Shown here piece after piece: positions 2,683-59,140 of a stretch of DNA of 64,000 nucleotides (positions are counted from its first letter, which is position 1; the number at the start of each line of letters is the position of its first letter). The stretch spans positions 432,916-496,915 of the forward strand of contig JABWCG010000001.1 in the NCBI GenBank assembly GCA_013359225.1, given 5' to 3'. The notes beneath the pieces are model-generated. The model had not been told where the DNA came from. It ran no database searches and worked only from the letters and a program-made list of their open reading frames with translations. The position numbers were made by a program, and so were the translations under genes. The stretch is from Candidatus Buchananbacteria bacterium (GTDB lineage Bacteria; Patescibacteriota; Patescibacteriia; Buchananbacterales; UBA6539).

Positions 2683-3126
2683 CTAAAGCCGCTGAAGTTC
2701 CCCAAAGGTCAAGTCATCAGGCAGCAGTGCCCGATGAAACCCTTTGTAATCAGCGTCGTTGATCGGACGCATGGTTTTGAAATGGACCTGTTCGGCCTGG
2801 CTGGAAAACTGTAAACTTTCCGTAATTTTTTTGGTCAACGTATCAACCAAATCCTCAAGACCTAAAACTTCCGGATGATTTCTCATGAACCAGACCAACT
2901 GGTCTCGGATGTGTTCCGTCTGGCGAATTGCCGACGAGCCAATCATAATATCGGGATTAAGTCTGACCGATCCGCAAATGCCGCCAGACATCACAATCAC
3001 TAGCGATGGCTTGCCGCACTTACTACAGGTAATAGTCATGACTCCTGAGACAATTTCAATTTGCAGCGGAACGCCGCAATGAGAACAACGCATCATCGCC
3101 GTTGTTTTCATAGTGCCACCCTCCAT
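2683..3126 (-). CDS. Hypothetical zinc-ribbon protein (CSHCG...CSKCG); the start may be the internal Met at about 3111
   Basis: 147-aa ORF with a C4 zinc-ribbon near the N-terminus and a soluble C-terminal domain of unrecognised family. It is convergent with gyrB and shares its terminator. Confidence 0.5.
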   Translation of the reverse strand: MEGGTMKTTAMMRCSHCGVPLQIEIVSGVMTITCSKCGKPSLVIVMSGGICGSVRLNPDIMIGSSAIRQTEHIRDQLVWFMRNHPEVLGLEDLVDTLTKKITESLQFSSQAEQVHFKTMRPINDADYKGFHRALLPDDLTFGELQRL

Positions 3127-5364: not shown

Positions 5365-5398
5365 ATACTCGTTATTAGTAACATTCTTGTCAAAAATT

Positions 5399-5941
5399 AT
5401 GGCTGAAGAACGCAAGCATTATCGTCCAAATTGGGATGACTATTTCATGGCAATTGCCAAAATAGTGGCGGCTAGAGGAACCTGCGACCGACTCTACGCC
5501 TCAGCGGTTTTGGTGAAAGACAACAGAATAATCTCAACCGGTTATAATGGTTCGCCGCCAGGTTTGCCCCACTGTAATGATGTTGGCCATTTAATGGAAG
5601 AGGGCCACTGTGTCCGCACAATTCATGCCGAACATAATGCAATTTTACAAGCGGCCGCCCAGGGTGGTACCAGTACCATCGGCTCAACCATCTACATGAA
5701 ATACAGCCCATGCATTCACTGCACTAAATATATTATCTCAGCCGGCATAAAAAGGGTTGTGTTTGAAAAAATTTATCGCAATCAAAAAGTTACCGAAATG
5801 TTCAAACAGGCAGGCGTTGTTGTTGAAGAATACAAATCAAATCCGGCCTGGCAGGAAGAAATCCTCAAAATATTTTCCGAAGAAACACCAACTCGCATTA
5901 ATGAGGGCGAAGTTAAATTGGAGGAAAAAAATGAAGCCTAA
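5399..5941 (+). CDS. dCMP deaminase (deoxycytidylate deaminase); ATG start inside the track ORF that begins at 5387
   Basis: The cytidine/deoxycytidylate deaminase zinc motifs HAEHNAI and PCIHC are present. Confidence 0.85.
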   Translation: MAEERKHYRPNWDDYFMAIAKIVAARGTCDRLYASAVLVKDNRIISTGYNGSPPGLPHCNDVGHLMEEGHCVRTIHAEHNAILQAAAQGGTSTIGSTIYMKYSPCIHCTKYIISAGIKRVVFEKIYRNQKVTEMFKQAGVVVEEYKSNPAWQEEILKIFSEETPTRINEGEVKLEEKNEA

Positions 5942-6491
5942 AATAATTATCGGCCTCATTGGTGAATTGGCCGCTGGCAAAGGCACTATTACCCGCTACT
6001 TAAAAGAAAATCATCAGGCTGTTAGCTTTCGCTTTTCCGATCCCCTGCGCGAAACCTTAAATATTTTTGATCTTGATGTCTCGCGCGAAAACATGCAGAA
6101 CATCTCAACGATGCTACGAACAAACTTCGGCGAAAATATTCTGGCTAAAGCCATTGCGAAAAAGGTTCGCGAAGGAGATGATAACTTCATTGTAATTGAC
6201 GGCGTCAGGCGCCACACCGATCTAGAAAATTTAAGCGACGTACCGGGTTTTAATCTCGTATATATCACTGCCGATCAAAAAATTCGGCACGATCGCTATG
6301 TCAAACGAAACGAGAATGTTGGCGACGATAAAATGACTTTTGCCGATTTTCAAATCAAAGAACAGGCCGAAGCCGACCGACAGATTCCTGAAGTCGCCAA
6401 ATCAGCCAACTATAAAATAAACAACGACGGTTCGCTAGAACAGCTATATCAGCAAATTGAAGATACCATTAAAAAAATAAATGAAAATTAA
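5931..6491 (+). CDS. P-loop deoxynucleoside-monophosphate kinase, T4 gp1-like; start at the ATG after GGAGG, inside the track ORF that begins at 5757
   Basis: A Walker A motif (GLIGELAAGKGT) is present. The C-terminus NNDGSLEQLYQQIEDTIKKI resembles, as I recall it, the C-terminus of phage T4 dNMP kinase (NDGSLEELF...). The gene sits inside a thymidylate-synthesis gene cluster. Confidence 0.55.
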   Translation: MKPKIIIGLIGELAAGKGTITRYLKENHQAVSFRFSDPLRETLNIFDLDVSRENMQNISTMLRTNFGENILAKAIAKKVREGDDNFIVIDGVRRHTDLENLSDVPGFNLVYITADQKIRHDRYVKRNENVGDDKMTFADFQIKEQAEADRQIPEVAKSANYKINNDGSLEQLYQQIEDTIKKINEN

Positions 6492-6903
6492 AGTCAAAAG
6501 ATTAAACCCAGAAGCTCAACTCCCCTCATATGCCCATCCCGGAGATGTCGGGCTTGATCTATATGCACTGGAAAATTATCAGCTGTTACCTGGGGAAAAC
6601 AAGATCTTTTTCTTGGGCTTTGCCCTGGAGTTTCCTGAAGGCTACGCGGCGATTGTTAAGGATAAAAGCAGTCTGCCAAAGAACGGCAAAATTCACACCA
6701 TGGGCGGCGTCTATGACGCCGGGTATCGGGGAGAATACAATGTCAACCTAATTAATCTAGGTGATAAACCATACTTAATTGAAAAAGGAAATAAAATTGC
6801 TCAATTACTAATTATGCCGGTTGTCTTAGCCGAACTGGAAACTGTTGACCAGTTAAGCGAAACTAGTCGCGGCGAGGGTCGGTTCGGATCAACCGGAAAA
6901 TAA
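6481..6903 (+). CDS. dut: dUTP diphosphatase (dUTPase)
   Basis: 140 aa. The trimeric dUTPase motifs AHPGDVGLDLY, GYRGE and the C-terminal RGEGRFGSTG are present. Confidence 0.9.
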   Translation: MKIKVKRLNPEAQLPSYAHPGDVGLDLYALENYQLLPGENKIFFLGFALEFPEGYAAIVKDKSSLPKNGKIHTMGGVYDAGYRGEYNVNLINLGDKPYLIEKGNKIAQLLIMPVVLAELETVDQLSETSRGEGRFGSTGK

Positions 6904-6909
6904 AAAAAT

Positions 6910-9255
6910 ATGGAGGACAAAAAAGTATTTTATATTATTGCCATAGTAATTATACTGGCTTTAATTGTAACCGGGGTAATCCTGCTATTTTTTTATTTTC
7001 AAAAAACCAGTACCACCCCTGATCCCAATGCAGTCGCAAACGTCAATCAGAATCAAACTGCCGGAACCCTGCCAAATAACCAAACAGTTGGCGATCCAAA
7101 TGACCCCAATAACGCCGCTGCCGCCTCTTTAGCCAAAGAAAAACAATTTATTTCATCATTCTGGCGTCCGAGCGAAATCAGCTTTAACCCAAGCCTGCCA
7201 ACTTACCAGACTCCCATTACTGAAATCAAAAATCAAATTGTTAATTATCGAGACTTTTCAAGAAAAATTGATGTTGAATCTAGTCTCGAAAAATTAGCAG
7301 CAAATAGTTTCGTCGTCATCGCAGATCCGTTCAAATCGCAGTCATCTGACTGGGAAACAAGTTATAAATTAATCAGGGAAAACGAGTTGCCCATATTTAT
7401 CAGCACCGATTCTGTAGCCGGAGTATATCAAACCACTTTGCATGTTATCTATAAAGAAATTGAACAAGATATTTTTTATCCGTCGCTTTGGAAATTACTA
7501 AACCAACTTTACCAGAAAAATAAAGCACGCTATGACCAAAAGCTCAAACAATTTGGTATTCAAACTGACTTACTGACTGAAGCTAACCGCCTTGAATTGT
7601 CCTACCTAGCCGTGGCTCTCAAACTCCTCCAGCCGGATGTGGCTCAAATTAGAGAGCCGCTCTCAACTGATGACAATAAATTTTTTACGCCCCAAGAAGC
7701 AGGTCAATATGCTTTTAACATCCCCGATTATCTTGATAAAGAAGTGACTGGCGAAATTGAATTAATTACCAAAAAAATCAAGGGTGCTGAATCAAAGGTT
7801 TTTCTTTATCCAAAAAATTATCAAGTTTTTGACGTTCCTGAACAATATCGTACTTCAGAAAAACTCAAAAATTATTACCTGGCGATCACCTGGCTCAACG
7901 AAGGATTTTTCCCGCTCTGGCATCAGGATAATGACTGTGCTGATTGTCTACTTGACGAACAAGATCATCAGATCAACTTGGTGGCAGCACTGTTGCTCAG
8001 CACCGATCTAGCCAGTGATCAAAATCTTAAAAACAGTTGGGCTAATATTTATAAATCAATTTCCTTTTTCAGAGGCTTGGAATCAAACTTAACTTACATT
8101 GACTATGCCCAATCACTAAAAAATATTTTTGGGGATGACTACGATATTGAACAATTATTTAGCGCTGACAATGCCACCGTTAAAGAACGAATCAGTCTTA
8201 TCCAAGAAGCACTTGGCTCCGTCACATTTTTGAGTGCACTTGGTGGCGATAACCAGTCCAAACCAAATACTGGCCTGCGCCTGCTTAGAAACTACCATCT
8301 ATTAGAAAATAAACTCTTTAACCGATTAACCTATCAGGCTACCGGAGAATATCTTGGCGAAACTAAAAATGTTGTCTTGCCATTCACCGGTTGTAATGTT
8401 GAAAAATTATTCCTACGATGCTGGCCGACCAGCCTTGATTTATTCAACCTGCTTGGCAATCAAACAGCTGCTAATATCTTAAGCGAGAATAAAAATAATC
8501 TTTACCAAAATTACCAGCCCAACCTTAACCAGCTTAAAGAGGAGCTGACAAAATTTGATCAAAATACCTGGCATGATAATGCATACTTAAGCCTGTTGTC
8601 GGCATTACAAAAAATCAATCATGATAACACTGCTGGTTACCCGGTTTTTATGACAACTGACGCTTGGCGGAAAAAAACTTTAACTACCAGTCTCGGAGCC
8701 TGGGTTGATTTTCACAAAGAAATAAACTTTGAGCGGTCAGAAACAAAAGAAAGTGGCGGCTTGGGTTCTTACTTTCCATACGGCTATGTCGAACCGCAGG
8801 TGGCGTTTTATGGTGAATTGCTTAGCAACGTAAAAATGATTATTGAGGGTTTTAATACCTTGCAAATAATCTCACCCGTCAGCCGCTCATACGAACGGCT
8901 TAATAACTTAAAAATTACGCTTGAAAAGTTAGCCGACATTTCAAAAAAAGAATTAGAAAATACTTCGCTTGAACAGACTGATTACGAATTTATTAATAAT
9001 TTCAACAAACATATCCGAACCTTTATTGGTGACGTCCGCAAAGAAAGCATCCAAAATACTCATACTCTCAGATTCCCGCTAGAAAATAATCGGCTCCTTG
9101 ATCAAAAAAATAAAGGGCTTGATTATTTGATCGTCGCTTATCCGAATTCTACGGGGCAGTTGTTTTTCGCCATTGGTCCGGTGTATAGTTTCACCGAGGA
9201 AAAAAATGGCGGAGCCGCCTCAACTAATTGGCAAACCGACTATAAAATAAAGTAA
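6910..9255 (+). CDS. Hypothetical large membrane-anchored protein (781 aa, N-terminal TM helix, Asn/Gln/Pro-rich linker)
   Basis: A long intact ORF with host-like codon usage. No recognisable family. It is inserted between dut and thyA. Confidence 0.7.
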   Translation: MEDKKVFYIIAIVIILALIVTGVILLFFYFQKTSTTPDPNAVANVNQNQTAGTLPNNQTVGDPNDPNNAAAASLAKEKQFISSFWRPSEISFNPSLPTYQTPITEIKNQIVNYRDFSRKIDVESSLEKLAANSFVVIADPFKSQSSDWETSYKLIRENELPIFISTDSVAGVYQTTLHVIYKEIEQDIFYPSLWKLLNQLYQKNKARYDQKLKQFGIQTDLLTEANRLELSYLAVALKLLQPDVAQIREPLSTDDNKFFTPQEAGQYAFNIPDYLDKEVTGEIELITKKIKGAESKVFLYPKNYQVFDVPEQYRTSEKLKNYYLAITWLNEGFFPLWHQDNDCADCLLDEQDHQINLVAALLLSTDLASDQNLKNSWANIYKSISFFRGLESNLTYIDYAQSLKNIFGDDYDIEQLFSADNATVKERISLIQEALGSVTFLSALGGDNQSKPNTGLRLLRNYHLLENKLFNRLTYQATGEYLGETKNVVLPFTGCNVEKLFLRCWPTSLDLFNLLGNQTAANILSENKNNLYQNYQPNLNQLKEELTKFDQNTWHDNAYLSLLSALQKINHDNTAGYPVFMTTDAWRKKTLTTSLGAWVDFHKEINFERSETKESGGLGSYFPYGYVEPQVAFYGELLSNVKMIIEGFNTLQIISPVSRSYERLNNLKITLEKLADISKKELENTSLEQTDYEFINNFNKHIRTFIGDVRKESIQNTHTLRFPLENNRLLDQKNKGLDYLIVAYPNSTGQLFFAIGPVYSFTEEKNGGAASTNWQTDYKIK

Positions 9256-9258
9256 ATT

Positions 9259-10131
9259 ATGAAAGCATACCTAGACATTGTTAAAAAAGTTCTAACCGAC
9301 GGAACTAAAAAAGAAAATCGTACCGGTATTGATACCATTTCAATCGCCGGCATGATGTTTGAACATGATATGGCCGAAGGCTACCCGTTGCTCACCACTA
9401 AAAAAGTACCATTTCGCCTAGTCGCTAGCGAACTTGAATTCTTTATCAAAGGCTTAACCGACAAACAGTGGCTAATTGACCGCAATAACCACATTTGGGA
9501 TGAATGGGCCAACCCTAAAAAAGCGCCATACGGCCACGACGAAGCGGCCAAAAACAAAATGGCTGCTGAACGCGACTTGGGCGCGATTTATGGCTTTCAG
9601 TGGCGGCATTTCAATGCCGCTTATGATAATTTTGATTCAAATTACTCCGGCCAAGGCGTTGATCAACTCAAAAAACTGGTTGAAACGATTAAAACTAATC
9701 CCAACGATCGCCGAATGATTGTTTCAGCCTGGAACCCATTACAAATGAACGAAATGGCGTTGCCTCCATGCCACTACTTATTTCAAGTAGTTATAACAGG
9801 CAACAAATTAAATTTAATGTGGAATCAGCGTTCCGTTGACGTCATGTTAGGCCTGCCATTTAACATCGCCAGCTATTCCCTGCTACTTCACCTGTTAGCC
9901 AAAGAAACCGGCTACCAGGAAGGCCGCCTGGTTGGTTTTTTAGGTGATGTTCATATTTATGAAAATCATATTAAAGGTGCTAAAGAACAACTCTCTCGCG
10001 ATCCGAATAAATATAAACTCCCCACAGTTGAAACTAAAAATTTCCAATCAATCTTTGAGTGGCAATATACCGACACCGAATTAATTAATTACCAAAGCTA
10101 TCCGACCATTAAGCTTGAAATCGCTGTTTAA
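9259..10131 (+). CDS. thyA: Thymidylate synthase ThyA
   Basis: 290 aa. The motifs RTGIDTIS, ...LPPCH..FQ and the conserved C-terminus are present. Confidence 0.95.
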   Translation: MKAYLDIVKKVLTDGTKKENRTGIDTISIAGMMFEHDMAEGYPLLTTKKVPFRLVASELEFFIKGLTDKQWLIDRNNHIWDEWANPKKAPYGHDEAAKNKMAAERDLGAIYGFQWRHFNAAYDNFDSNYSGQGVDQLKKLVETIKTNPNDRRMIVSAWNPLQMNEMALPPCHYLFQVVITGNKLNLMWNQRSVDVMLGLPFNIASYSLLLHLLAKETGYQEGRLVGFLGDVHIYENHIKGAKEQLSRDPNKYKLPTVETKNFQSIFEWQYTDTELINYQSYPTIKLEIAV

Positions 10132-10133
10132 CT

Positions 10134-10649
10134 ATGAAAATAATTCTCATGATGGCAATGACTGCCGATGGCATTATTGCTAAACACAAAGACCATACTG
10201 CTGACTGGACCACCAAAGCCGATAAAAAAGCATTTATCGCCGAAACTAAAAAACATGGGGTCATCATTATGGGCGAAACCACATTTAACACCATTGGCCG
10301 CCCCTTGCCTGGACGACTGAATTTAATTTTAACGCTAACGCCGGAAAAATATCAGGAGCAAGTTCAACCAGGTTTGTTGGAATTTATGAACGCCCCAGCT
10401 GAAACAGTGGTACAAACCCTGGAGCAACGAGGCTTTACGTCAGCGGTACTTGGTGGTGGCGCCAGAACAAACTCTTTCTTTTTAAAAGCAAATTTAGTAG
10501 ATGAGATTTTAATTACGGTTGAACCAAAAATTTTTGGAATGGGTATGAACTTTACCGAAGGTGAAGACCTCGACCTTAATTTACAGCTTCTGGCGGCAAA
10601 AGAAATTGGAGACCAGGCCGTTCAGCTTCATTACAAAATAATAAAATAA
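10134..10649 (+). CDS. folA: Dihydrofolate reductase
   Basis: 171 aa. The motifs MAMTADGIIA and IIMGETTFNTIGRPLPGR are present. It lies immediately downstream of thyA. Confidence 0.85.
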   Translation: MKIILMMAMTADGIIAKHKDHTADWTTKADKKAFIAETKKHGVIIMGETTFNTIGRPLPGRLNLILTLTPEKYQEQVQPGLLEFMNAPAETVVQTLEQRGFTSAVLGGGARTNSFFLKANLVDEILITVEPKIFGMGMNFTEGEDLDLNLQLLAAKEIGDQAVQLHYKIIK

Positions 10650-10668
10650 AAAAGAGGTAAAACCTCTT
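10640..10668 (-). terminator. Rho-independent terminator of the minus-strand gene 10676-11017 (also a hairpin after folA)
   Basis: Stem GAGGT / ACCTC with an AAAA loop. On the minus strand it is followed by TTTTTTATTTT. Confidence 0.45.
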
Positions 10669-10675
10669 AAGCGTG

Positions 10676-11017
10676 TCAGGACTGGCAAAATGCCAGACCG
10701 ACTTTCCGCAAAACAAAAGTAAAACAAACAAAGAACAAAACCAGCACTGCTGTCGTCAACCAGGACACATCTGGTATCTGGTAAAGCGACGTCAGCAATC
10801 GGGCGCCGAGCGTAAGCGGGCTCGCCAGATACAACGCATACATGCAGGGCATAAAACACCCGCTGATCAGCAGAACTGTTCTACCACACTCTCGTCCATT
10901 GCGAAGAGCGGCAAACATTGATAATCCGACGGCCAAAACCAGCCAGGCCGCCAAAACAGCTAACAGCACGATACCGATCATATTGCGTCCTCCAAGATGG
11001 TTGGGGCCAAACCGCAA
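10676..11017 (-). CDS. Hypothetical small membrane protein (113 aa), GC-richer than its surroundings
   Basis: Two or three predicted TM helices. It has its own terminator. It is antisense-embedded between folA and tmk. Confidence 0.4.
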   Translation of the reverse strand: MRFGPNHLGGRNMIGIVLLAVLAAWLVLAVGLSMFAALRNGRECGRTVLLISGCFMPCMYALYLASPLTLGARLLTSLYQIPDVSWLTTAVLVLFFVCFTFVLRKVGLAFCQS

Positions 11018-11047
11018 ACAATGCTACTCTAACTAATTACCAAATAA

Positions 11048-11722
11048 ATGTCAAACCACATCGGAAAACTTATCGTCATTGAAGGAATTGATGGTTCTGG
11101 TAAAGCCACTCAAACCAGAATTCTTTTTGAAAAACTTAAAGCTTCGCACCTGGATGTTGAGACAATTGATTTTCCTCAGTACACTAACAATTTTTTCGGC
11201 CGGCAGGTGAGGCGCTATCTAAATGGTGAATTTGGCGATCCAACAAAAGTTAATCCTTATCTGGCTTCAATTCTTTACGCTGCCGACCGCTGGGAATCAA
11301 GCGATAAAATCAAGCAGTGGCTTGATCAAGGAAAGATTGTCTTGCTGGACCGATATTATACAAGCAACCTTATCCACCAGGGTACTAAATTTTCTCAAGA
11401 TGAGTTAGAGAAATTTATTTCCTGGAATGAAGCAATGGAGTTTGATACTTTTCAAATCCCCAGACCCGACCTAATACTCTATCTTCATTTACCGGCGGCT
11501 ATGGCCTATGATCTGATTACCAAGCGCGGCCAAGGCCACGACGGACATGATACGCTTGAACATATGCAAACCGCCGAAACCCGATGTCAATATCTTGCCG
11601 CAAAACTTAACTGGCAAACCATTGAGTGTTGCGATACTACCGGGCTCTTACCAATTGAGGAAATCGCCAACATCATCTGGCACGCACTACAACCAATACT
11701 TGAGAAAAATAAAATTTTATAG
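11048..11722 (+). CDS. tmk: Thymidylate kinase
   Basis: 224 aa. The P-loop reads IVIEGIDGSGKATQ, and the DRY motif and lid region are present. Confidence 0.9.
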   Translation: MSNHIGKLIVIEGIDGSGKATQTRILFEKLKASHLDVETIDFPQYTNNFFGRQVRRYLNGEFGDPTKVNPYLASILYAADRWESSDKIKQWLDQGKIVLLDRYYTSNLIHQGTKFSQDELEKFISWNEAMEFDTFQIPRPDLILYLHLPAAMAYDLITKRGQGHDGHDTLEHMQTAETRCQYLAAKLNWQTIECCDTTGLLPIEEIANIIWHALQPILEKNKIL

Positions 11723-30064: not shown

Positions 30065-30093
30065 GCCCCCATTTTAACATAAAAAATGATTAA

Positions 30094-30141
30094 ATAAAAA
30101 AGAGTTTAAAATAGGCCGACGCATCGACTATTTAAACTCTT
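30094..30141 (-). terminator. Rho-independent terminator of the pyrE-pyrF-microprotein operon
   Basis: An 11-bp stem AAGAGTTTAAA / TTTAAACTCTT with a 19-nt loop. On the minus strand it is followed by TTTTTTATTT. Confidence 0.5.
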
Positions 30142-30152
30142 AAGTCAAGGTT

Positions 30153-30326
30153 CTATTTCTTTTTTGCAGCCCCCAACCAGGCCACACAGTCTCGACAATA
30201 CATGCCCCCATTTGTTCGACACTTCTTACAGGCCTTAGTGTCTGGCACGATATCGCACCTATGAGGACGCCCCGGATATTTAGCCTTACCACCACCGTCA
30301 TAGTTATGGCTTGGCTTTTTGCTCAT
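30153..30326 (-). CDS. Cys-rich zinc-ribbon microprotein (57 aa); below the ORF-track length cutoff
   Basis: The translation is MSKKPSHNYDGGGKAKYPGRPHRCDIVPDTKACKKCRTNGGMYCRDCVAWLGAAKKK. Its ATG overlaps the pyrF stop in an ATGA arrangement, indicating translational coupling. A terminator follows. Confidence 0.4.
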   Translation of the reverse strand: MSKKPSHNYDGGGKAKYPGRPHRCDIVPDTKACKKCRTNGGMYCRDCVAWLGAAKKK

Positions 30327-31165
30327 GCAGTCTGCTCCAGAGCAGCATTGATTTGATCGCGTAGCTCACAGGCTCGTTGCCCGGCGACTTCCGCAAAATC
30401 AGCCTCAGACGAGGCGTGAATAATGCCTCGTGACGAATTAATGACAAACGGATATGTCCTGGCGTATCTGACGGTTTCCAGTAATTCACCTCCCTGGGAA
30501 CCAACGCCGGGAATCAGGAGCGGAATTTCCGCGGGCCGCCAAATGGGGTTGTCGGTCCCCAAAAATTTAATCTGACCCGGAAATGTTGCTCCCATCACAA
30601 ACCCAATCCGGGTACTTTCCTCGGTTTGCAATGCAGCAACTTCGTGAGCCAGATAAACGAATAACGGTTTGCCGCCGCCAACGCAGTCCTCCTGAAACTT
30701 GGCCGCGCCCTTATTGCTGGTATGCGACAAAACGTACAGTCCTTTCGCCGCGCCCCACCTCAACCACGGCGCCAATGTGTCGGTACCCAGGTAGGCATTG
30801 AGCGTCACGGCATCAGCGCCGAATCGTTCAAATGCCGCGACGGCATATTTCTCGGCCGTGTTGCCAATGTCGCCATACTTGGCGTCCAAGATAACCGGCA
30901 AGCAAACCTCCGACTGAATAAAGCTGATCAGTTTTGCCAGCTCCGGTTCGGCTTCGCAGCTTTGCCAAAAAGCCAAATTCGGTTTGTAGCAACATGCGTA
31001 CGGCGCAGTCCGCTCGACAATATCGCTTGCAAACCGGATCAACTGTTCCCGCAGACTGCCTTTGAGCACTGGCAGTTTATCAGGGTCGGGATCCAACCCA
31101 ACACAGACGCGAGTTTGGTGCTGAGCCTGAATCTCGCACAATCGGTCCAGAAAAGATATCATCAC
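30323..31165 (-). CDS. pyrF: Orotidine-5'-phosphate decarboxylase, type 2 (long, actinobacterial-like form); high GC
   Basis: 280 aa. The N-terminal RVCVGLDPDPDKL and overall length fit type-2 OMP decarboxylase. GC is about 55% against a genome background of about 40%. Confidence 0.8.
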   Translation of the reverse strand: MMISFLDRLCEIQAQHQTRVCVGLDPDPDKLPVLKGSLREQLIRFASDIVERTAPYACCYKPNLAFWQSCEAEPELAKLISFIQSEVCLPVILDAKYGDIGNTAEKYAVAAFERFGADAVTLNAYLGTDTLAPWLRWGAAKGLYVLSHTSNKGAAKFQEDCVGGGKPLFVYLAHEVAALQTEESTRIGFVMGATFPGQIKFLGTDNPIWRPAEIPLLIPGVGSQGGELLETVRYARTYPFVINSSRGIIHASSEADFAEVAGQRACELRDQINAALEQTA

Positions 31166-31190
31166 GAAATCTCCTTTTTTCGTCCCGGCG

Positions 31191-31883
31191 CTAGAGTGCT
31201 AACACACCGCGCGGCACGGAACTTTGCGGATGACGCTCGTAAAACTCCTTGCCGTGACCAACCATCATATTGATCGGCACAAGATCAGCACACTGTGGGC
31301 AGGTTTCTTCCGGGTGCATCACCATCGGAATATCATACAGCGTTTCAAGAACCGGAACGCCAAGCTGTTCAGCAGTAATGCCGCCGCGGTTACAAATCAC
31401 CGCCACTCCGGCGACAATGCCACCAACCTCATTAACAGCGTTAATCGTCGCCACGGCGGAACCACCGCTGGCAAACACGTCTTCAGTCACGAGCCCGTTT
31501 TGGCCAGCGACAATTGTCGGGAAATAACGGCCGATGACACGTTCTCCCTTTTTAACACCGTCGCCTGTCTTTTCCTGGGCAAACACCCAGTTAACTTCCC
31601 GACCAGTGATCCGGCTCAGCCAACACGCTGTCGCCGCTGCCAGACCAACCGCACCATACGTCGGTCCGATCACAACGCTGATGTCGTGATCAACGAAACG
31701 CAAGGCGATGATTCGGGCGGCTGCCGAAAGCAGCCGACCGCTGGACAACAGTCGATCCTTGTCAAAGTACCCGGGAGCATGAAAATGCCCGGCGGGCTTA
31801 GGAGTTAACACGACATGGTCGTCGGTCAAAATCGCTCCTCGAGCTTTGGCAGCTTCAAGGATTTCAGCCAAACTCATCTCCAT
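31191..31883 (-). CDS. pyrE: Type I phosphoribosyltransferase, orotate PRTase-like; start at the internal Met (MEMSLAEILE) preceded by GGAGG; high GC
   Basis: The PRTase PRPP-binding motif LVTEDVFASGGS is present. It lies directly upstream of pyrF in the same orientation. There is an unusual C-terminal extension containing CPQC. Confidence 0.55.
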   Translation of the reverse strand: MEMSLAEILEAAKARGAILTDDHVVLTPKPAGHFHAPGYFDKDRLLSSGRLLSAAARIIALRFVDHDISVVIGPTYGAVGLAAATACWLSRITGREVNWVFAQEKTGDGVKKGERVIGRYFPTIVAGQNGLVTEDVFASGGSAVATINAVNEVGGIVAGVAVICNRGGITAEQLGVPVLETLYDIPMVMHPEETCPQCADLVPINMMVGHGKEFYERHPQSSVPRGVLAL

Positions 31884-32041
31884 ACGACTTTTCCTCCTGT
31901 AACCGGTTGTTTTATTCGCCAGAATAAATAGATTGGAAGGTACACAGCCCCCCAACTGCCTAATTACTTTAGTTAGTATTAAAAATAAAGTCAAGGATAA
32001 TTTTTATCTCAATTAAGCTAAAATATAGGCCTGAATCAATC

Positions 32042-32073
32042 AAAAATTCCTGCTATATATGCAGGAATTTTTT
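32042..32073. terminator. Bidirectional rho-independent terminator
   Basis: A perfect stem ATTCCTGC / GCAGGAAT with a loop TATATAT, flanked by AAAA upstream and TTTTTT downstream. Confidence 0.6.
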
Positions 32074-32158: not shown

Positions 32159-32278
32159 CTAGTAGCAGCACTCGCCAGCCGGTTTTCCGGAACCGCAGTC
32201 GCATGGCTCTGCCGCACCGCAGCACTCGCCATACGGACGTTCTGACCCGCAAGGGCAATCGTCACCCAAATGTGGCAT
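32159..32278 (-). CDS. SEC-C motif microprotein (39 aa) with two tandem SEC-C metal-binding motifs; not in the ORF track
   Basis: The translation is MPHLGDDCPCGSERPYGECCGAAEPCDCGSGKPAGECCY. The two motifs CPCGSERPYGECCG and CDCGSGKPAGECCY match the SecA C-terminal SEC-C consensus CPCGSGKKYKxCCG. It begins 8 nt after the tatD stop, and a terminator follows. Confidence 0.4.
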   Translation of the reverse strand: MPHLGDDCPCGSERPYGECCGAAEPCDCGSGKPAGECCY

Positions 32279-42287: not shown

Positions 42288-43169
42288 ATGAACTTCGTTC
42301 TTTTCAACATTGCGCTGGTATTGGTCGGGGCGGCAATCGCCGGACTTGAAGGTCGGTTGTCACACCGCCAACTTGGGTCGAAATCAATCCCTTGGCTTGC
42401 TCACGGCGGGATGTGGGCCGACTTGGTACTAATCAGTACCATGGCGTATTTCATTGGTCCGCAACTCTCCGACGTTTCGCCGCGCATGTTCGTCTTCGCC
42501 GGGGTAGTTGGGATACTGGCAAGTATTGTAATGCACTTAGCATACGTCCAGTGGGCCGACCTGTCTGGTCATATTGTCGAGCCGAGCAACCAAGGCTTGA
42601 ACAAATTGACCGCTGGCGGCTGGTACCACTTGGCGTATATGGCGTTAGTCATTACCGCCATCGTCGCCTACTATGCCGGTACGAGCGCAAACAAGTTTTG
42701 GGTGTCACTACTACTAGTGGCATTCATCATTCCCGCTGTCTGGCAGCCAGGGTGGTACGCTCACAAGCTTCACCACGGCTACGGTCGCATCGACGCCAAT
42801 GGCTGGGGTCAGGCGGCTGTAATGGTCATCTTGATTAGTATCTCGTTTTGGTACTTCACTCCCTACGACTTCAAAGTTGAGGTGGTGGGCACCAGCGAGC
42901 CAACGATCCAGTTGACCGCCACGAAACTTCCATGGCAAGCAACACCCTTTGACGAACAAGGTCAGGCCATCATCCAGAGCTACACCGTTGTTCGTTTTTT
43001 CCAGAAAAACGAGGTTTGGCAGACGACTGGCGATCACCTATCAGCAAATGTCATTGCCTACCATCTTATTGGAAAAGACGACAACAGCCTACTACCACTC
43101 ACGACGACGATTCATATCGACAAAGTCGGCGGCGGCGAAATGCAGAACCTTGACATCAAATTGCCGTAA
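42288..43169 (+). CDS. Hypothetical integral membrane protein (293 aa, about 6 TM helices plus a C-terminal soluble domain); high GC (about 55%)
   Basis: A long intact ORF with a strong promoter, Shine-Dalgarno and terminator. Its composition is foreign to the neighbouring uvrA and uvrB. Confidence 0.6.
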   Translation: MNFVLFNIALVLVGAAIAGLEGRLSHRQLGSKSIPWLAHGGMWADLVLISTMAYFIGPQLSDVSPRMFVFAGVVGILASIVMHLAYVQWADLSGHIVEPSNQGLNKLTAGGWYHLAYMALVITAIVAYYAGTSANKFWVSLLLVAFIIPAVWQPGWYAHKLHHGYGRIDANGWGQAAVMVILISISFWYFTPYDFKVEVVGTSEPTIQLTATKLPWQATPFDEQGQAIIQSYTVVRFFQKNEVWQTTGDHLSANVIAYHLIGKDDNSLLPLTTTIHIDKVGGGEMQNLDIKLP

Positions 43170-57982: not shown

Positions 57983-59140
57983 ATGTTTGGAAAACGCGGT
58001 TTTTTCGGATTCGGACGTCAGGACGATAATTCGGGTGCCGGCAACAACGTTGAACCTTGCGCCATATGCGGCGTGGTCCACGAAAACCCGGTGACGGCGA
58101 ATGAGATGAAAGGCATGGGCATGCTTCCGGGCCTGCTGGGCGCACTGCTGAGCGGCGGGCTTGGCGGTGGCATCCCCGGAGTCGATGTCGAAACCACCAC
58201 GGTGATGATCAACCCCAAAACCGGCGAAGTCAAGACCCTGACGCGCGGCTCGCGCCTGGAAGAAGTCGACCTTTCGGCGTTCGATCCGGACGTGATCCGG
58301 CAACTCGAAGAGGTGGCCAATTTCGACCGCCTCGTCGACGAGAAGTCCAGCAAGGCATCCGAGCTACGGCGCGAAGTCTCCCTGTTGGAGCGTAACCTCC
58401 GTCGCGCCGAAACCCGCCTCAAGCATTCGCTCTGGGGCCAGGTCGACGGACGCTACTATGGCGACGACCAGCTCGAGATCGGGCGTGAAGGCGAAGAAAC
58501 GGTTCGCATCAGCCGCCGCGGCGACCACATCTGCATCGTGGAGGGCGAACTGGGTCAGCAACTGATGTCCCAGCAAGACGCCATCGAACAGATGAGTGGC
58601 ACCATCCGCGACAAGAACCGCGAAGCCGAAACCCTGGAGCGCGAGGCCAAGCACCAACCGGAGCTGGCGAGGGTGATGCATGAAGAGGCCACAGAGGCGC
58701 TGTTCAACTACCTGCGCCAGACCGGCAACCGCGAGCTGATGCGTCAGCTCATGACCGACCGCGCGTTCCTCCACGTCGACGAAACCGGCAAGCTCGGCAT
58801 CTCTGCGATGGTCGACATCAACGAGCAGACCGACGGCGTGCCCGAGGAAATCCGCGACATGATGGCCGTGATGCAGAAGCATCACCCCAGCGGTCGCGCG
58901 CTACCCCCCGCCGTGGCCAAGCTTCTCGGCCTGAATACTCCCGAACTGCCGCCGGTGTCGGATGAACTGCCGGTCGGACCCATCACCTCTCCCGACGCCA
59001 TCAGCGACGAAGGCGCGGCCGCCGAAAACAACGGCAAAGACGTGGTTCCTCCCGGAACCTTCATGGCCGACGAACCCGTCCTGGTCGCGGCCAACGAACC
59101 GCCCCTGGGCGACCCCGACGGCGGCAAACTCGGCGACTAG
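57983..59140 (+). CDS. Hypothetical protein (385 aa) of strongly foreign composition (about 62% GC): Gly-rich N-terminus with a CAICG motif, central charged coiled-coil-like region, Pro/Asp-rich acidic tail
   Basis: A single long ORF with GC3-rich codons (GGC, CTG, GAC, CGC). All overlapping opposite-strand ORFs are stop-poor artefacts of the high GC. A native promoter, a Shine-Dalgarno and a downstream terminator flank it. Confidence 0.6.
   Translation: MFGKRGFFGFGRQDDNSGAGNNVEPCAICGVVHENPVTANEMKGMGMLPGLLGALLSGGLGGGIPGVDVETTTVMINPKTGEVKTLTRGSRLEEVDLSAFDPDVIRQLEEVANFDRLVDEKSSKASELRREVSLLERNLRRAETRLKHSLWGQVDGRYYGDDQLEIGREGEETVRISRRGDHICIVEGELGQQLMSQQDAIEQMSGTIRDKNREAETLEREAKHQPELARVMHEEATEALFNYLRQTGNRELMRQLMTDRAFLHVDETGKLGISAMVDINEQTDGVPEEIRDMMAVMQKHHPSGRALPPAVAKLLGLNTPELPPVSDELPVGPITSPDAISDEGAAAENNGKDVVPPGTFMADEPVLVAANEPPLGDPDGGKLGD

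Follow-up and report, generated by a model that had tools for sequence, protein, structure and literature searches.

A probable orotate-to-UMP operon with a divergent phosphoribosyltransferase and a pyrF-coupled cysteine microprotein in Candidatus Buchananbacteria

Patescibacteria are thought to depend on a host for their nucleotides. The described systems closest to the locus presented here are the type-2 decarboxylases of orotidine 5'-monophosphate (OMP) (TIGR02127, pyrF_sub2), the Thermus-type orotate phosphoribosyltransferases (OPRTases; TIGR01367), the bifunctional uridine 5'-monophosphate (UMP) synthases and PyrF-PyrE fusions (PDB 3qw4, NCBIfam NF004034), which link the same two activities, and the leader attenuators of pyrimidine operons. 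The latter are known from E. coli pyrBI and pyrE, from the Bacillus PyrR sites and from Bacillus pyrG, and comprise leader-peptide, PyrR and reiterative-transcription types. Furthermore, genomic islands are documented in Patescibacteria, with transfers reported mostly between Patescibacteria (PMC12455944). Here we analyzed a stretch of 64,000 nucleotides (64 kb, hereafter the window) from Candidatus Buchananbacteria (Patescibacteria), a small bacterium of symbiotic type, with a focus on the minus strand at 31994-30091. There, a phosphoribosyltransferase (PRTase) gene, pyrF and a gene for a small cysteine (Cys) protein follow each other. Taken as a whole, we consider it probable that these genes form one chromosomal transcription unit which converts orotate to UMP, that the unit has been inherited vertically since the split from the lineage of its closest relative, and that the four-cysteine (Cys4) microprotein gene is its third member.

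The unit is compact and leads from a promoter-like site through a leader hairpin to the PRTase gene, pyrF and the Cys open reading frame (ORF), before it ends in a terminator (Table 1). The initial annotation had described an operon with a Shine-Dalgarno sequence, a 57-aa ORF coupled through ATGA and a terminator, and all of these elements were found on the minus strand. The stop codon of pyrF and the start codon of the microprotein gene overlap in the ATGA at 30326-30323. As start codon of PyrF we chose the ATG at 31162 over a GTG at 31165, because the ATG version matches the database protein P0014 (279 aa), which has 100% identity and coverage to the window PyrF. In the closest relative, locus L008, a hairpin with a T-run lies at the same place as the terminator of the window, with a different sequence. 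In contrast to the UMP synthases and fusions, the two activities would thus be encoded by separate genes in the order PRTase and then decarboxylase, with a microprotein coupled to pyrF in addition. Judged by a Pfam scan of 45 ORFs, the gene content of the window is typical of Patescibacteria and includes GyrB, NusG, L11, L1, GatB, MiaA, ThrRS, DnaE, PheST and DciA. A UvrD/PD-(D/E)XK helicase, TatD, CvpA, MetRS, UvrABC and type IV pilus genes are encoded as well.

Table 1. Features of the pyr operon in the window and further copies of its leader module in related loci
Feature	Sequence	Positions	Strand	Basis or remark
Sigma-70-like promoter, TTGACT-17 nt-TAAAGT	Window	31966..31994	-	Consensus scan
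Leader hairpin and U-rich tract, between promoter and Shine-Dalgarno sequence	Window	31923..31961	-	Terminator-like site 31956-31932; covariance model R1
Shine-Dalgarno sequence AGGAGG, 9 nt before the PRTase ATG at 31883	Window	31893..31898	-	Read in the sequence
PRTase, 230 aa, divergent homologue of Thermus-type OPRTase (family A)	Window	31191..31883	-	
Shine-Dalgarno sequence AAGGAG of pyrF	Window	31171..31176	-	Read in the sequence
pyrF, type-2 orotidine-5'-phosphate decarboxylase, 279 aa	Window	30323..31162	-	TIGR02127, PF00215, motifs
Basic Cys microprotein, 57 aa	Window	30153..30326	-	ATGA overlap with pyrF stop
Intrinsic-terminator-like hairpin (30141-30100) and U-run, end of operon	Window	30091..30141	-	RNA fold -16.6 kcal/mol, z = -2.3
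Leader module copy before HAD hydrolase	L007	12066-12104		
Leader module copy before fucose-isomerase-C-domain protein	L013	10160-10198		
Leader module copy before CoA-transferase	L014	8048-8092		Nearly identical over ~75 nt to the copy before L014 pyrF
Leader module copy before orphan ORF	L009	5939-5977		

The product of pyrF passes the curated cut-offs of TIGR02127 (191.8 bits, cut-off 110.6) and of PF00215 (94.1 bits, cut-off 27). In an alignment of 12 sequences that includes named proteobacterial PyrFs, K60, the motif D93-x-K95-x-x-D98 and the GxGxQGG loop (G219, G221, Q223, G225) are invariant. The roles of the catalytic lysine, of the Asp-x-Lys-x-x-Asp motif and of the phosphate-binding loop are well established for OMP decarboxylases. 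By all sequence criteria at hand, the window PyrF is a bona fide OMP decarboxylase, and its assignment to type 2 in the initial annotation is borne out by the TIGR02127 score together with the catalytic motifs. While it shares these features with the described type-2 enzymes, it differs from them by its place in a separate metagenomic clade with indels of its own, being at most 47% identical to the named proteobacterial enzymes. In the PDB, its top matches are the chains 3qw3 (110 bits) and 3qw4, deposited as OMP decarboxylase/OPRTase and UMP synthase, while 4mjz reached 103 and 3v75 67 bits. We take 3qw3 to be from Leishmania, 4mjz from Toxoplasma and 3v75 from Streptomyces.

The PRTase encoded upstream of pyrF has a type I fold with the PRPP (5-phosphoribosyl 1-diphosphate) motif LVTEDVFASGGS. 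The PRPP-binding acidic motif and the [ST]-G-G-[ST] loop are present (LVTEDVFASGGSA), with E134, D135, S139, G140, G141 and S142 being invariant. Its best model is pyrE_Therm (TIGR01367), which aligns over model positions 4-182 of 187 with 56.9 bits (cut-off 150.25). An AlphaFold2 model of the protein (predicted local distance difference test, pLDDT, 87) has OPRTases as its best Foldseek matches (E ~1e-12 to 1e-9). With the Thermus-type OPRTases it thus has in common the best model, the fold, the PRPP motif and a C-terminal CPxC followed by (V/I)N..VG.G. It differs from them by an insertion in the N-terminal hood, a remodeled flexible loop of variable length and an extra C-terminal tail (F..R.P.S.VPR). 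The hood motif of the wider Thermus-type family, T-S-G-x-H-G-x-x-Y-x-N-K-D, is the part that contacts orotate. Compared to this motif, the window PRTase keeps H, Y and [ND]-K-[DE], while S-G is replaced by P-K-P-x-G-H-F. A PyrR-like regulator was considered as well and ruled out, since no PyrR model was among the NCBIfam matches.

The family to which this PRTase belongs (family A) is rare. A word-indexed search of 5.8 billion proteins delivered only 11 relatives with E < 1e-40, and the few named ones among them are Patescibacteria; of 185,579 species genomes, two contain the family. An exhaustive profile search of 1.84 billion proteins yielded six 50%-cluster representatives as a tight group (E <= 1e-84) and, after a step in score, 436 relatives at E <= 1e-30. 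The tight family was seen only in Patescibacteria-type contigs. Ten of the 436 wider relatives were sampled, and pyrE_Therm was the best model for each of them (105-164 bits). Five of these ten are natural fusions to PyrF, either of type 2 (P0183, P0192) or of type 1 (P0202, P0214, P0231). Residues 6-214 of the window PRTase align with the PRTase domain of the fusion P0183 at 34% identity (E = 7e-29), and this alignment takes in the C-terminal CPxC...IN..VG.G motif. Considered on their own, the five fusions join a Thermus-type OPRTase-like domain and an OMP decarboxylase in a single chain, with both domain orders occurring, and represent prokaryote-style UMP synthases among metagenomic proteins.

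In all nine distinct loci with a family-A PRTase, the next gene encodes an OMP decarboxylase, which comes in four kinds: the canonical type 2 (window, L008, L018), a type-2-like form of ~397 aa (L003, L009), type 1 (L007) and a type-1-like form of 239 aa (L019 and, partially, L021). This interchangeable pairing and the natural fusions speak strongly, if indirectly, for OMP as the product of the PRTase. Taken together, the sequence identifies it as a rare and divergent relative of the Thermus-type OPRTases, and we infer its specificity for orotate from the predicted fold, the placement in the family, the strict pairing with OMP decarboxylases and the homology to PyrF fusions.

PRTase and PyrF would jointly catalyze the reaction of orotate and PRPP to OMP and further to UMP and CO2. 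Most likely, the operon converts orotate to UMP, whereby the PyrF step follows from curated models and motifs and the PRTase step from the indirect evidence given above. Among the 45 ORFs scanned against Pfam, neither pyrB, pyrC, pyrD nor carAB was found, in agreement with the initial annotation, which had seen no other de novo pyrimidine gene in the window. Likewise, no other pyr gene lies within ~10 kb of the pair in any related locus. De novo nucleotide synthesis is lacking from 93% of Patescibacteria genomes, and its genes are scattered phylogenetically (bioRxiv 10.64898/2026.06.21.733656). Consequently, the pair plausibly serves an uptake-dependent formation of UMP. The cell would plausibly take orotate from its host or community, and the UMP made from it by the operon would feed the thymidylate block of the window. 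The latter had been called intact, and its presence on the plus strand at 5387-11722 was confirmed. It encodes dCMP deaminase, a kinase resembling dNMP kinases, dUTPase, ThyA, DHFR (as a DHFR/RibD_C protein) and Tmk. Two genes break up the block, one for a DUF3160 protein of 781 aa (6910-9255) and the other a GC-rich orphan ORF on the opposite strand (10676-11017).

The third gene of the operon encodes the basic Cys microprotein. In a hidden Markov model search of six-frame translations of the related loci, homologues were detected directly downstream of pyrF in L008, L009, L010 and L013 (E = 1e-13 to 1e-32). There, its partners are type-2 as well as long-type decarboxylases, and PRTases of family A as well as others. 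The alignment has 15 invariant columns, among them P18, G19, P21, C24, P28, C33, K35, R37, C44, C47, A49 and W50. Compared to L008, codon-position identity is 0.84/0.84/0.46, and the nonsynonymous divergence (dN) is 0.22 with saturated synonymous divergence (dS); a translated gene under purifying selection is therefore indicated. By these sequence comparisons, the operon has a real third gene in the microprotein ORF, which is conserved in five lineages. No match was found in Pfam, NCBIfam and PHROG and no homologue in the word-indexed search of 5.8 billion proteins, while one match from a metagenome scan (L017) was spurious, as it lies inside an unrelated high-GC gene. The initial annotation had called the ORF a zinc ribbon. 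Its ATGA-coupled gene is real; however, the protein matches no known family and two conserved CxxC knuckles are not present: C36, with which the first CxxC ends, is confined to the window and L008, and the Cys residues invariant throughout the family are C24, C33, C44 and C47. A metal site formed by these four is a reasonable inference only, and the microprotein is possibly a metal-binding partner or a regulator. A single-sequence AlphaFold2 model is helical, but unreliable with a pLDDT of 63.6.

If the operon is compared across relatives, its position is preserved. An OMP decarboxylase occupies the same slot between TatD/SEC-C and a UvrD-like helicase in all seven relatives that reach the helicase flank (L003, L007, L008, L010, L013, L014, L018), and a PRTase is found upstream in six of them, L014 being the one that lacks it. 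In L009, the PRTase/decarboxylase pair occurs together with a V-ATPase flank on a contig that stops before a helicase. The order of the slot is MetRS, CvpA, TatD, the SEC-C microprotein, variable cargo, PRTase, OMP decarboxylase, small ORFs, the UvrD-like helicase, DciA and, further on, PheST. Against L008, dN is 0.10-0.11 alike for PyrF, PRTase, UvrD and PheS, with saturated synonymous sites, and the identity of PyrF to the window copy ranks L008 > L010 > L013 > L014, which matches the order obtained for PheS. By these comparisons, vertical inheritance of the window copy goes back at least to its separation from the L008 lineage.

A neighbor-joining tree of 52 type-2 PyrFs, sampled as the best database matches only and holding no actinobacterial sequence, places the 16 closest sequences in one clade (bootstrap 90/100). 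Five of these stem from loci shown to be of Patescibacteria type and eleven are unannotated metagenomic proteins. Sister to this clade are the sampled sequences of Xanthomonadales and Burkholderiales, which are 44-47% identical to the window PyrF. The examined members of the clade being Patescibacteria, any horizontal origin would therefore be old or recurrent and not traceably actinobacterial. In contrast, the initial annotation had described the decarboxylase as actinobacterial in style and the pathway as horizontally acquired. The former is not supported, since the nearest named outsiders belong to Burkholderiales and Xanthomonadales and the chain 3v75 scored well below 3qw3. The latter, understood as a recent event, is contradicted by the PyrF tree and by the PheS-matching order of identities, both of which are congruent with the host lineage at the resolution available.

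Several observations nevertheless weigh against an orotate-to-UMP operon of vertical descent. First, the PRTase scores below curated cut-offs everywhere (TIGR01367, 56.9 of 150.25 bits; TIGR00336, 47 of 106.8 bits; PF00156, 24.4 of 26.3 bits). Second, adenine PRTases (APRTs) are structurally almost as near to its model as OPRTases are. Third, TPKPxGHFHAPGY replaces TSGxHGxxY in the hood, which amounts to an insertion of 5-7 residues, and the flexible loop is remodeled. The label orotate-PRTase-like, given to this gene before, is supported, with the correction that its product passes no curated PRTase model. Fourth, our view comprises 64 kb, and other parts of the genome may encode complete de novo synthesis, a PRPP synthase or an importer of orotate. 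Fifth, GC content and GC content at third codon positions (GC3) are still high in every relative despite saturated synonymous sites, for which simple vertical inheritance gives no explanation. Sixth, three PRTase forms and four decarboxylase kinds make up a mosaic in the slot, so that replacements at deeper levels are indicated.

The extent of the window bears on the possibility that the pair carries out the two final reactions of a full de novo pyrimidine pathway, whose pyrB, pyrC, pyrD and carAB would lie in another part of the genome, so that no orotate is salvaged. In most bacteria, pyrE and pyrF go along with the full pathway, and the window is part of a larger contig. In addition, ~7% of Patescibacteria genomes keep de novo synthesis, with OMP decarboxylase used as its marker (bioRxiv 10.64898/2026.06.21.733656). 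However, this reading has to face the lack of further pyr genes both in the window and around the pair in the related loci, and the same study found the pathway missing from 93% of the phylum and its genes phylogenetically scattered. Overall, we regard a complete pathway as rather unlikely.

The peculiarities of the PRTase could also be taken to mean that the enzyme ribosylates another acid or base and that the decarboxylase acts on this product in a non-canonical nucleotide pathway. The sub-threshold scores on all OPRTase models, the insertion in the base-contacting hood, the variable flexible loop with insertions of ~18-40 residues in some members, and the extreme rarity of the family, with six cluster representatives among 1.84 billion proteins and two species genomes, would fit such a scenario. 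Yet PyrF, its partner, is a canonical enzyme whose catalytic residues are intact, the PRTase occurs interchangeably with OMP decarboxylases of four ordinary kinds, its close homologues include fusions to PyrF, and the hood residues H-x-x-x-Y-x-[ND]-K-[DE] are kept. Thus, a substrate other than orotate appears improbable.

With respect to composition, the GC content of 30094-31883 is 53.3%, while 1790-nt windows across the 64 kb have a mean of 42.3% (sd 3.4). The initial annotation had stated about 55%, so the elevation is confirmed and the value is slightly lower. Only one other spot in the window, at ~57.3-58.3 kb, is equally rich in GC. GC3 is 0.58 for PyrF (z = 3.1) and 0.56 for the PRTase (z = 2.8), compared to a gene background of 0.408 +/- 0.054. 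Within the related loci, the cargo of the slot exceeds the host genome by 10-18 GC points in every relative; examples are L010 with 47-50% against about 30% and L003 with 57% against 40-41%. As this excess persists across deep vertical divergence, GC deviation alone is no sign of recent transfer in these genomes. Of the mobility hallmarks, neither a tRNA nor repeats bracketing the operon were detected, and the flanking genes scanned or called contained no mobility domains (integrase or transposase). Relatives of the PRTase were absent from viral contigs, and PHROG gave no match for the microprotein, for the GC-rich orphan ORFs of the window or for the small basic ORFs of the relatives.

The deviating GC (53% against 42%, with GC3 at z ~3) and a PyrF of subfamily 2, which is in use by Actinobacteria too, are what speaks for a recent acquisition of an actinobacterial pyrE-pyrF cassette, but we reject this origin as highly improbable because of the synteny of the slot in every relative examined, a dN against L008 that equals the dN of housekeeping genes, at saturated dS, the single PyrF clade with Proteobacteria as its nearest named outsiders, the low rank of 3v75 (Streptomyces) under the top chains, and the lack of tRNA, integrase, flanking direct repeats and viral or PHROG relatives. 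GC excess and mosaic do not fit a single recent event. What they fit is a slot whose content was replaced in situ repeatedly out of a GC-richer pool, or else a substitution equilibrium that differs locally, for example as the result of a recombination hot spot with biased gene conversion. An old acquisition by the ancestor of the clade or repeated in-situ replacement is possible, given that high GC and a mosaic structure are seen in the slot of every relative. Compared to the genomic islands of Patescibacteria (PMC12455944), the locus is alike in being a compositionally deviant accessory metabolic block in a streamlined genome. However, it differs from them as its slot has neither mobility genes, tRNA nor flanking repeats, and as slot and pyrF are kept across deep divergence instead of being patchy.

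Four further GC-rich ORFs without a Pfam or PHROG match were noticed in the window: 57983-59140 (+; GC 63%, GC3 0.78), 42288-43169 (+; 52.5%, 0.63), 10676-11017 (-; 51.5%, 0.56) and 2683-3126 (-; 48%, 0.53). They lie between conserved housekeeping genes, mostly on the strand opposite to their neighbors, and the leader module known from the pyr slot is missing from all four.

This leader module precedes the operon not only in the window but also in ten related loci. It consists of TTGACW-17-TAAAGT, a hairpin within ~10 nt and a U-tract. In the window, the hairpin is built from the 5' arm GUUGGGGGG, a loop of 7 nt and the 3' arm CCUUCCAAU, followed by CUAUUUAUUCU. In general, its 5' arm is purine-rich (UGGGAGGG) and its 3' arm pyrimidine-rich (CCUUUCCAA). 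The ten aligned loci agree in the -35 TTGAC, the -10 box and the spacing between them, while the remaining spacer is variable. We built a covariance model (R1) from 14 copies of the module. On the 64-kb window, R1 has one match below E = 0.1, which is the leader itself (28.3 bits, E = 3.5e-4), a site that R1 had been trained on. A copy from L003 that had been left out of training is recovered as well (E = 0.009). In alignment A8, which holds the matches as fitted to R1 and includes two weak ones, the share of paired cells is 90.8%, with 78% for shuffles, and covariation scores 0.55 against 0.32, with 0 of 500 shuffles reaching the observed value; the values drop if the partners are slid against each other.

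Hairpin and U-tract between promoter and first gene resemble the leader attenuators of pyrimidine operons. In contrast to these, the window has no leader peptide, no Rfam PyrR-site match and no conserved alternative fold that could serve as antiterminator, and modules of its type are not limited to pyrimidine genes. The aligned leaders contain no consistently placed start codon, and no credible Rfam family emerged when the whole window was scanned at gathering threshold or the leader permissively. A riboswitch-like alternative fold was considered for the leader, and none is conserved. In relatives, the module also stands before non-pyrimidine GC-rich cargo of the same slot (Table 1). Its role could be that of an attenuator, a 5' stabilizing stem-loop or a mimic of Shine-Dalgarno/anti-Shine-Dalgarno pairing.

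One might speculate that Buchananbacteria-like Patescibacteria have an accessory locus of cassette type in the slot between TatD/SEC-C and the UvrD-like helicase. Each GC-rich cargo unit, be it pyrE-pyrF, the HAD hydrolase, the CoA-transferase, the fucose-isomerase-C-domain protein or orphan ORFs, would then be driven by one copy of the AT-rich module with its promoter, GGGAGGG/CCUUUCC hairpin and U-tract. The module would act as a previously undescribed, lineage-specific leader/attenuator or as a cassette-capture element controlling metabolic genes of foreign composition, and the pair that forms UMP would have a dedicated partner in the Cys4 microprotein. This idea is tentative and, in our view, rather doubtful as a whole.

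Besides the pyr genes, the slot and its borders show further features. A complete V/A-type ATPase operon lies on the opposite strand upstream of the pyr operon in L008 (58-4834), L009 (557-2952) and L010 (276-9002). In L010, the only contig of the three to reach that flank, it follows TatD/SEC-C. L003 and L014 have an H+-pyrophosphatase in the slot instead. Small, very basic GC-rich ORFs occur downstream of pyrF or the microprotein gene in L010 (11020-11262), L013 (9595-9939), L014 (6386-6925) and L018 (1992-2297); two of them share the motif NQLRASA[RH]K, which is a tandem repeat in L013, no family was matched, and the window is without such ORFs. The helicase that flanks the slot in L003 (15409-19539) comprises 1376 aa and contains Hint/intein-splicing domains, thus an intein inserted in the helicase is indicated. 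At the other border, a 39-aa ORF of the window (32159-32278, minus strand) lies directly downstream of TatD and contains two tandem SEC-C-type metal-binding motifs (MPHLGDDCPCGSERPYGECCGAAEPCDCGSGKPAGECCY), with a terminator hairpin nearby at 32042-32072. The ORF is almost identical in L003, L007, L010 and L014 and has one motif in L013, while TatD itself is only ~60% identical. Its GC content of 62% results from its amino-acid composition, and it is part of the conserved core and not of an island.

The enzymes of the operon are of known kinds, and the literature searched contained no account of orotate or OPRTase in candidate phyla radiation (CPR) bacteria. New compared to that literature are this lineage's stand-alone pyrE-pyrF module, a rare subfamily of PRTases, a Cys4 microprotein coupled to pyrF and the promoter-hairpin module shared within the slot. 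Among these, the OPRTase subfamily with its remodeled base-binding loop, the Cys4 microprotein translationally coupled to pyrF and the leader hairpin module of the GC-rich cargo are testable new items. Furthermore, the locus is a cautionary case for inferring recent transfer from GC deviation. If our interpretation as an operon that leads from orotate to UMP is true, this conserved two-enzyme route names orotate as a metabolite which some Patescibacteria may draw from their partners, and a dependence on orotate would help cultivation attempts as well as models of host dependence.

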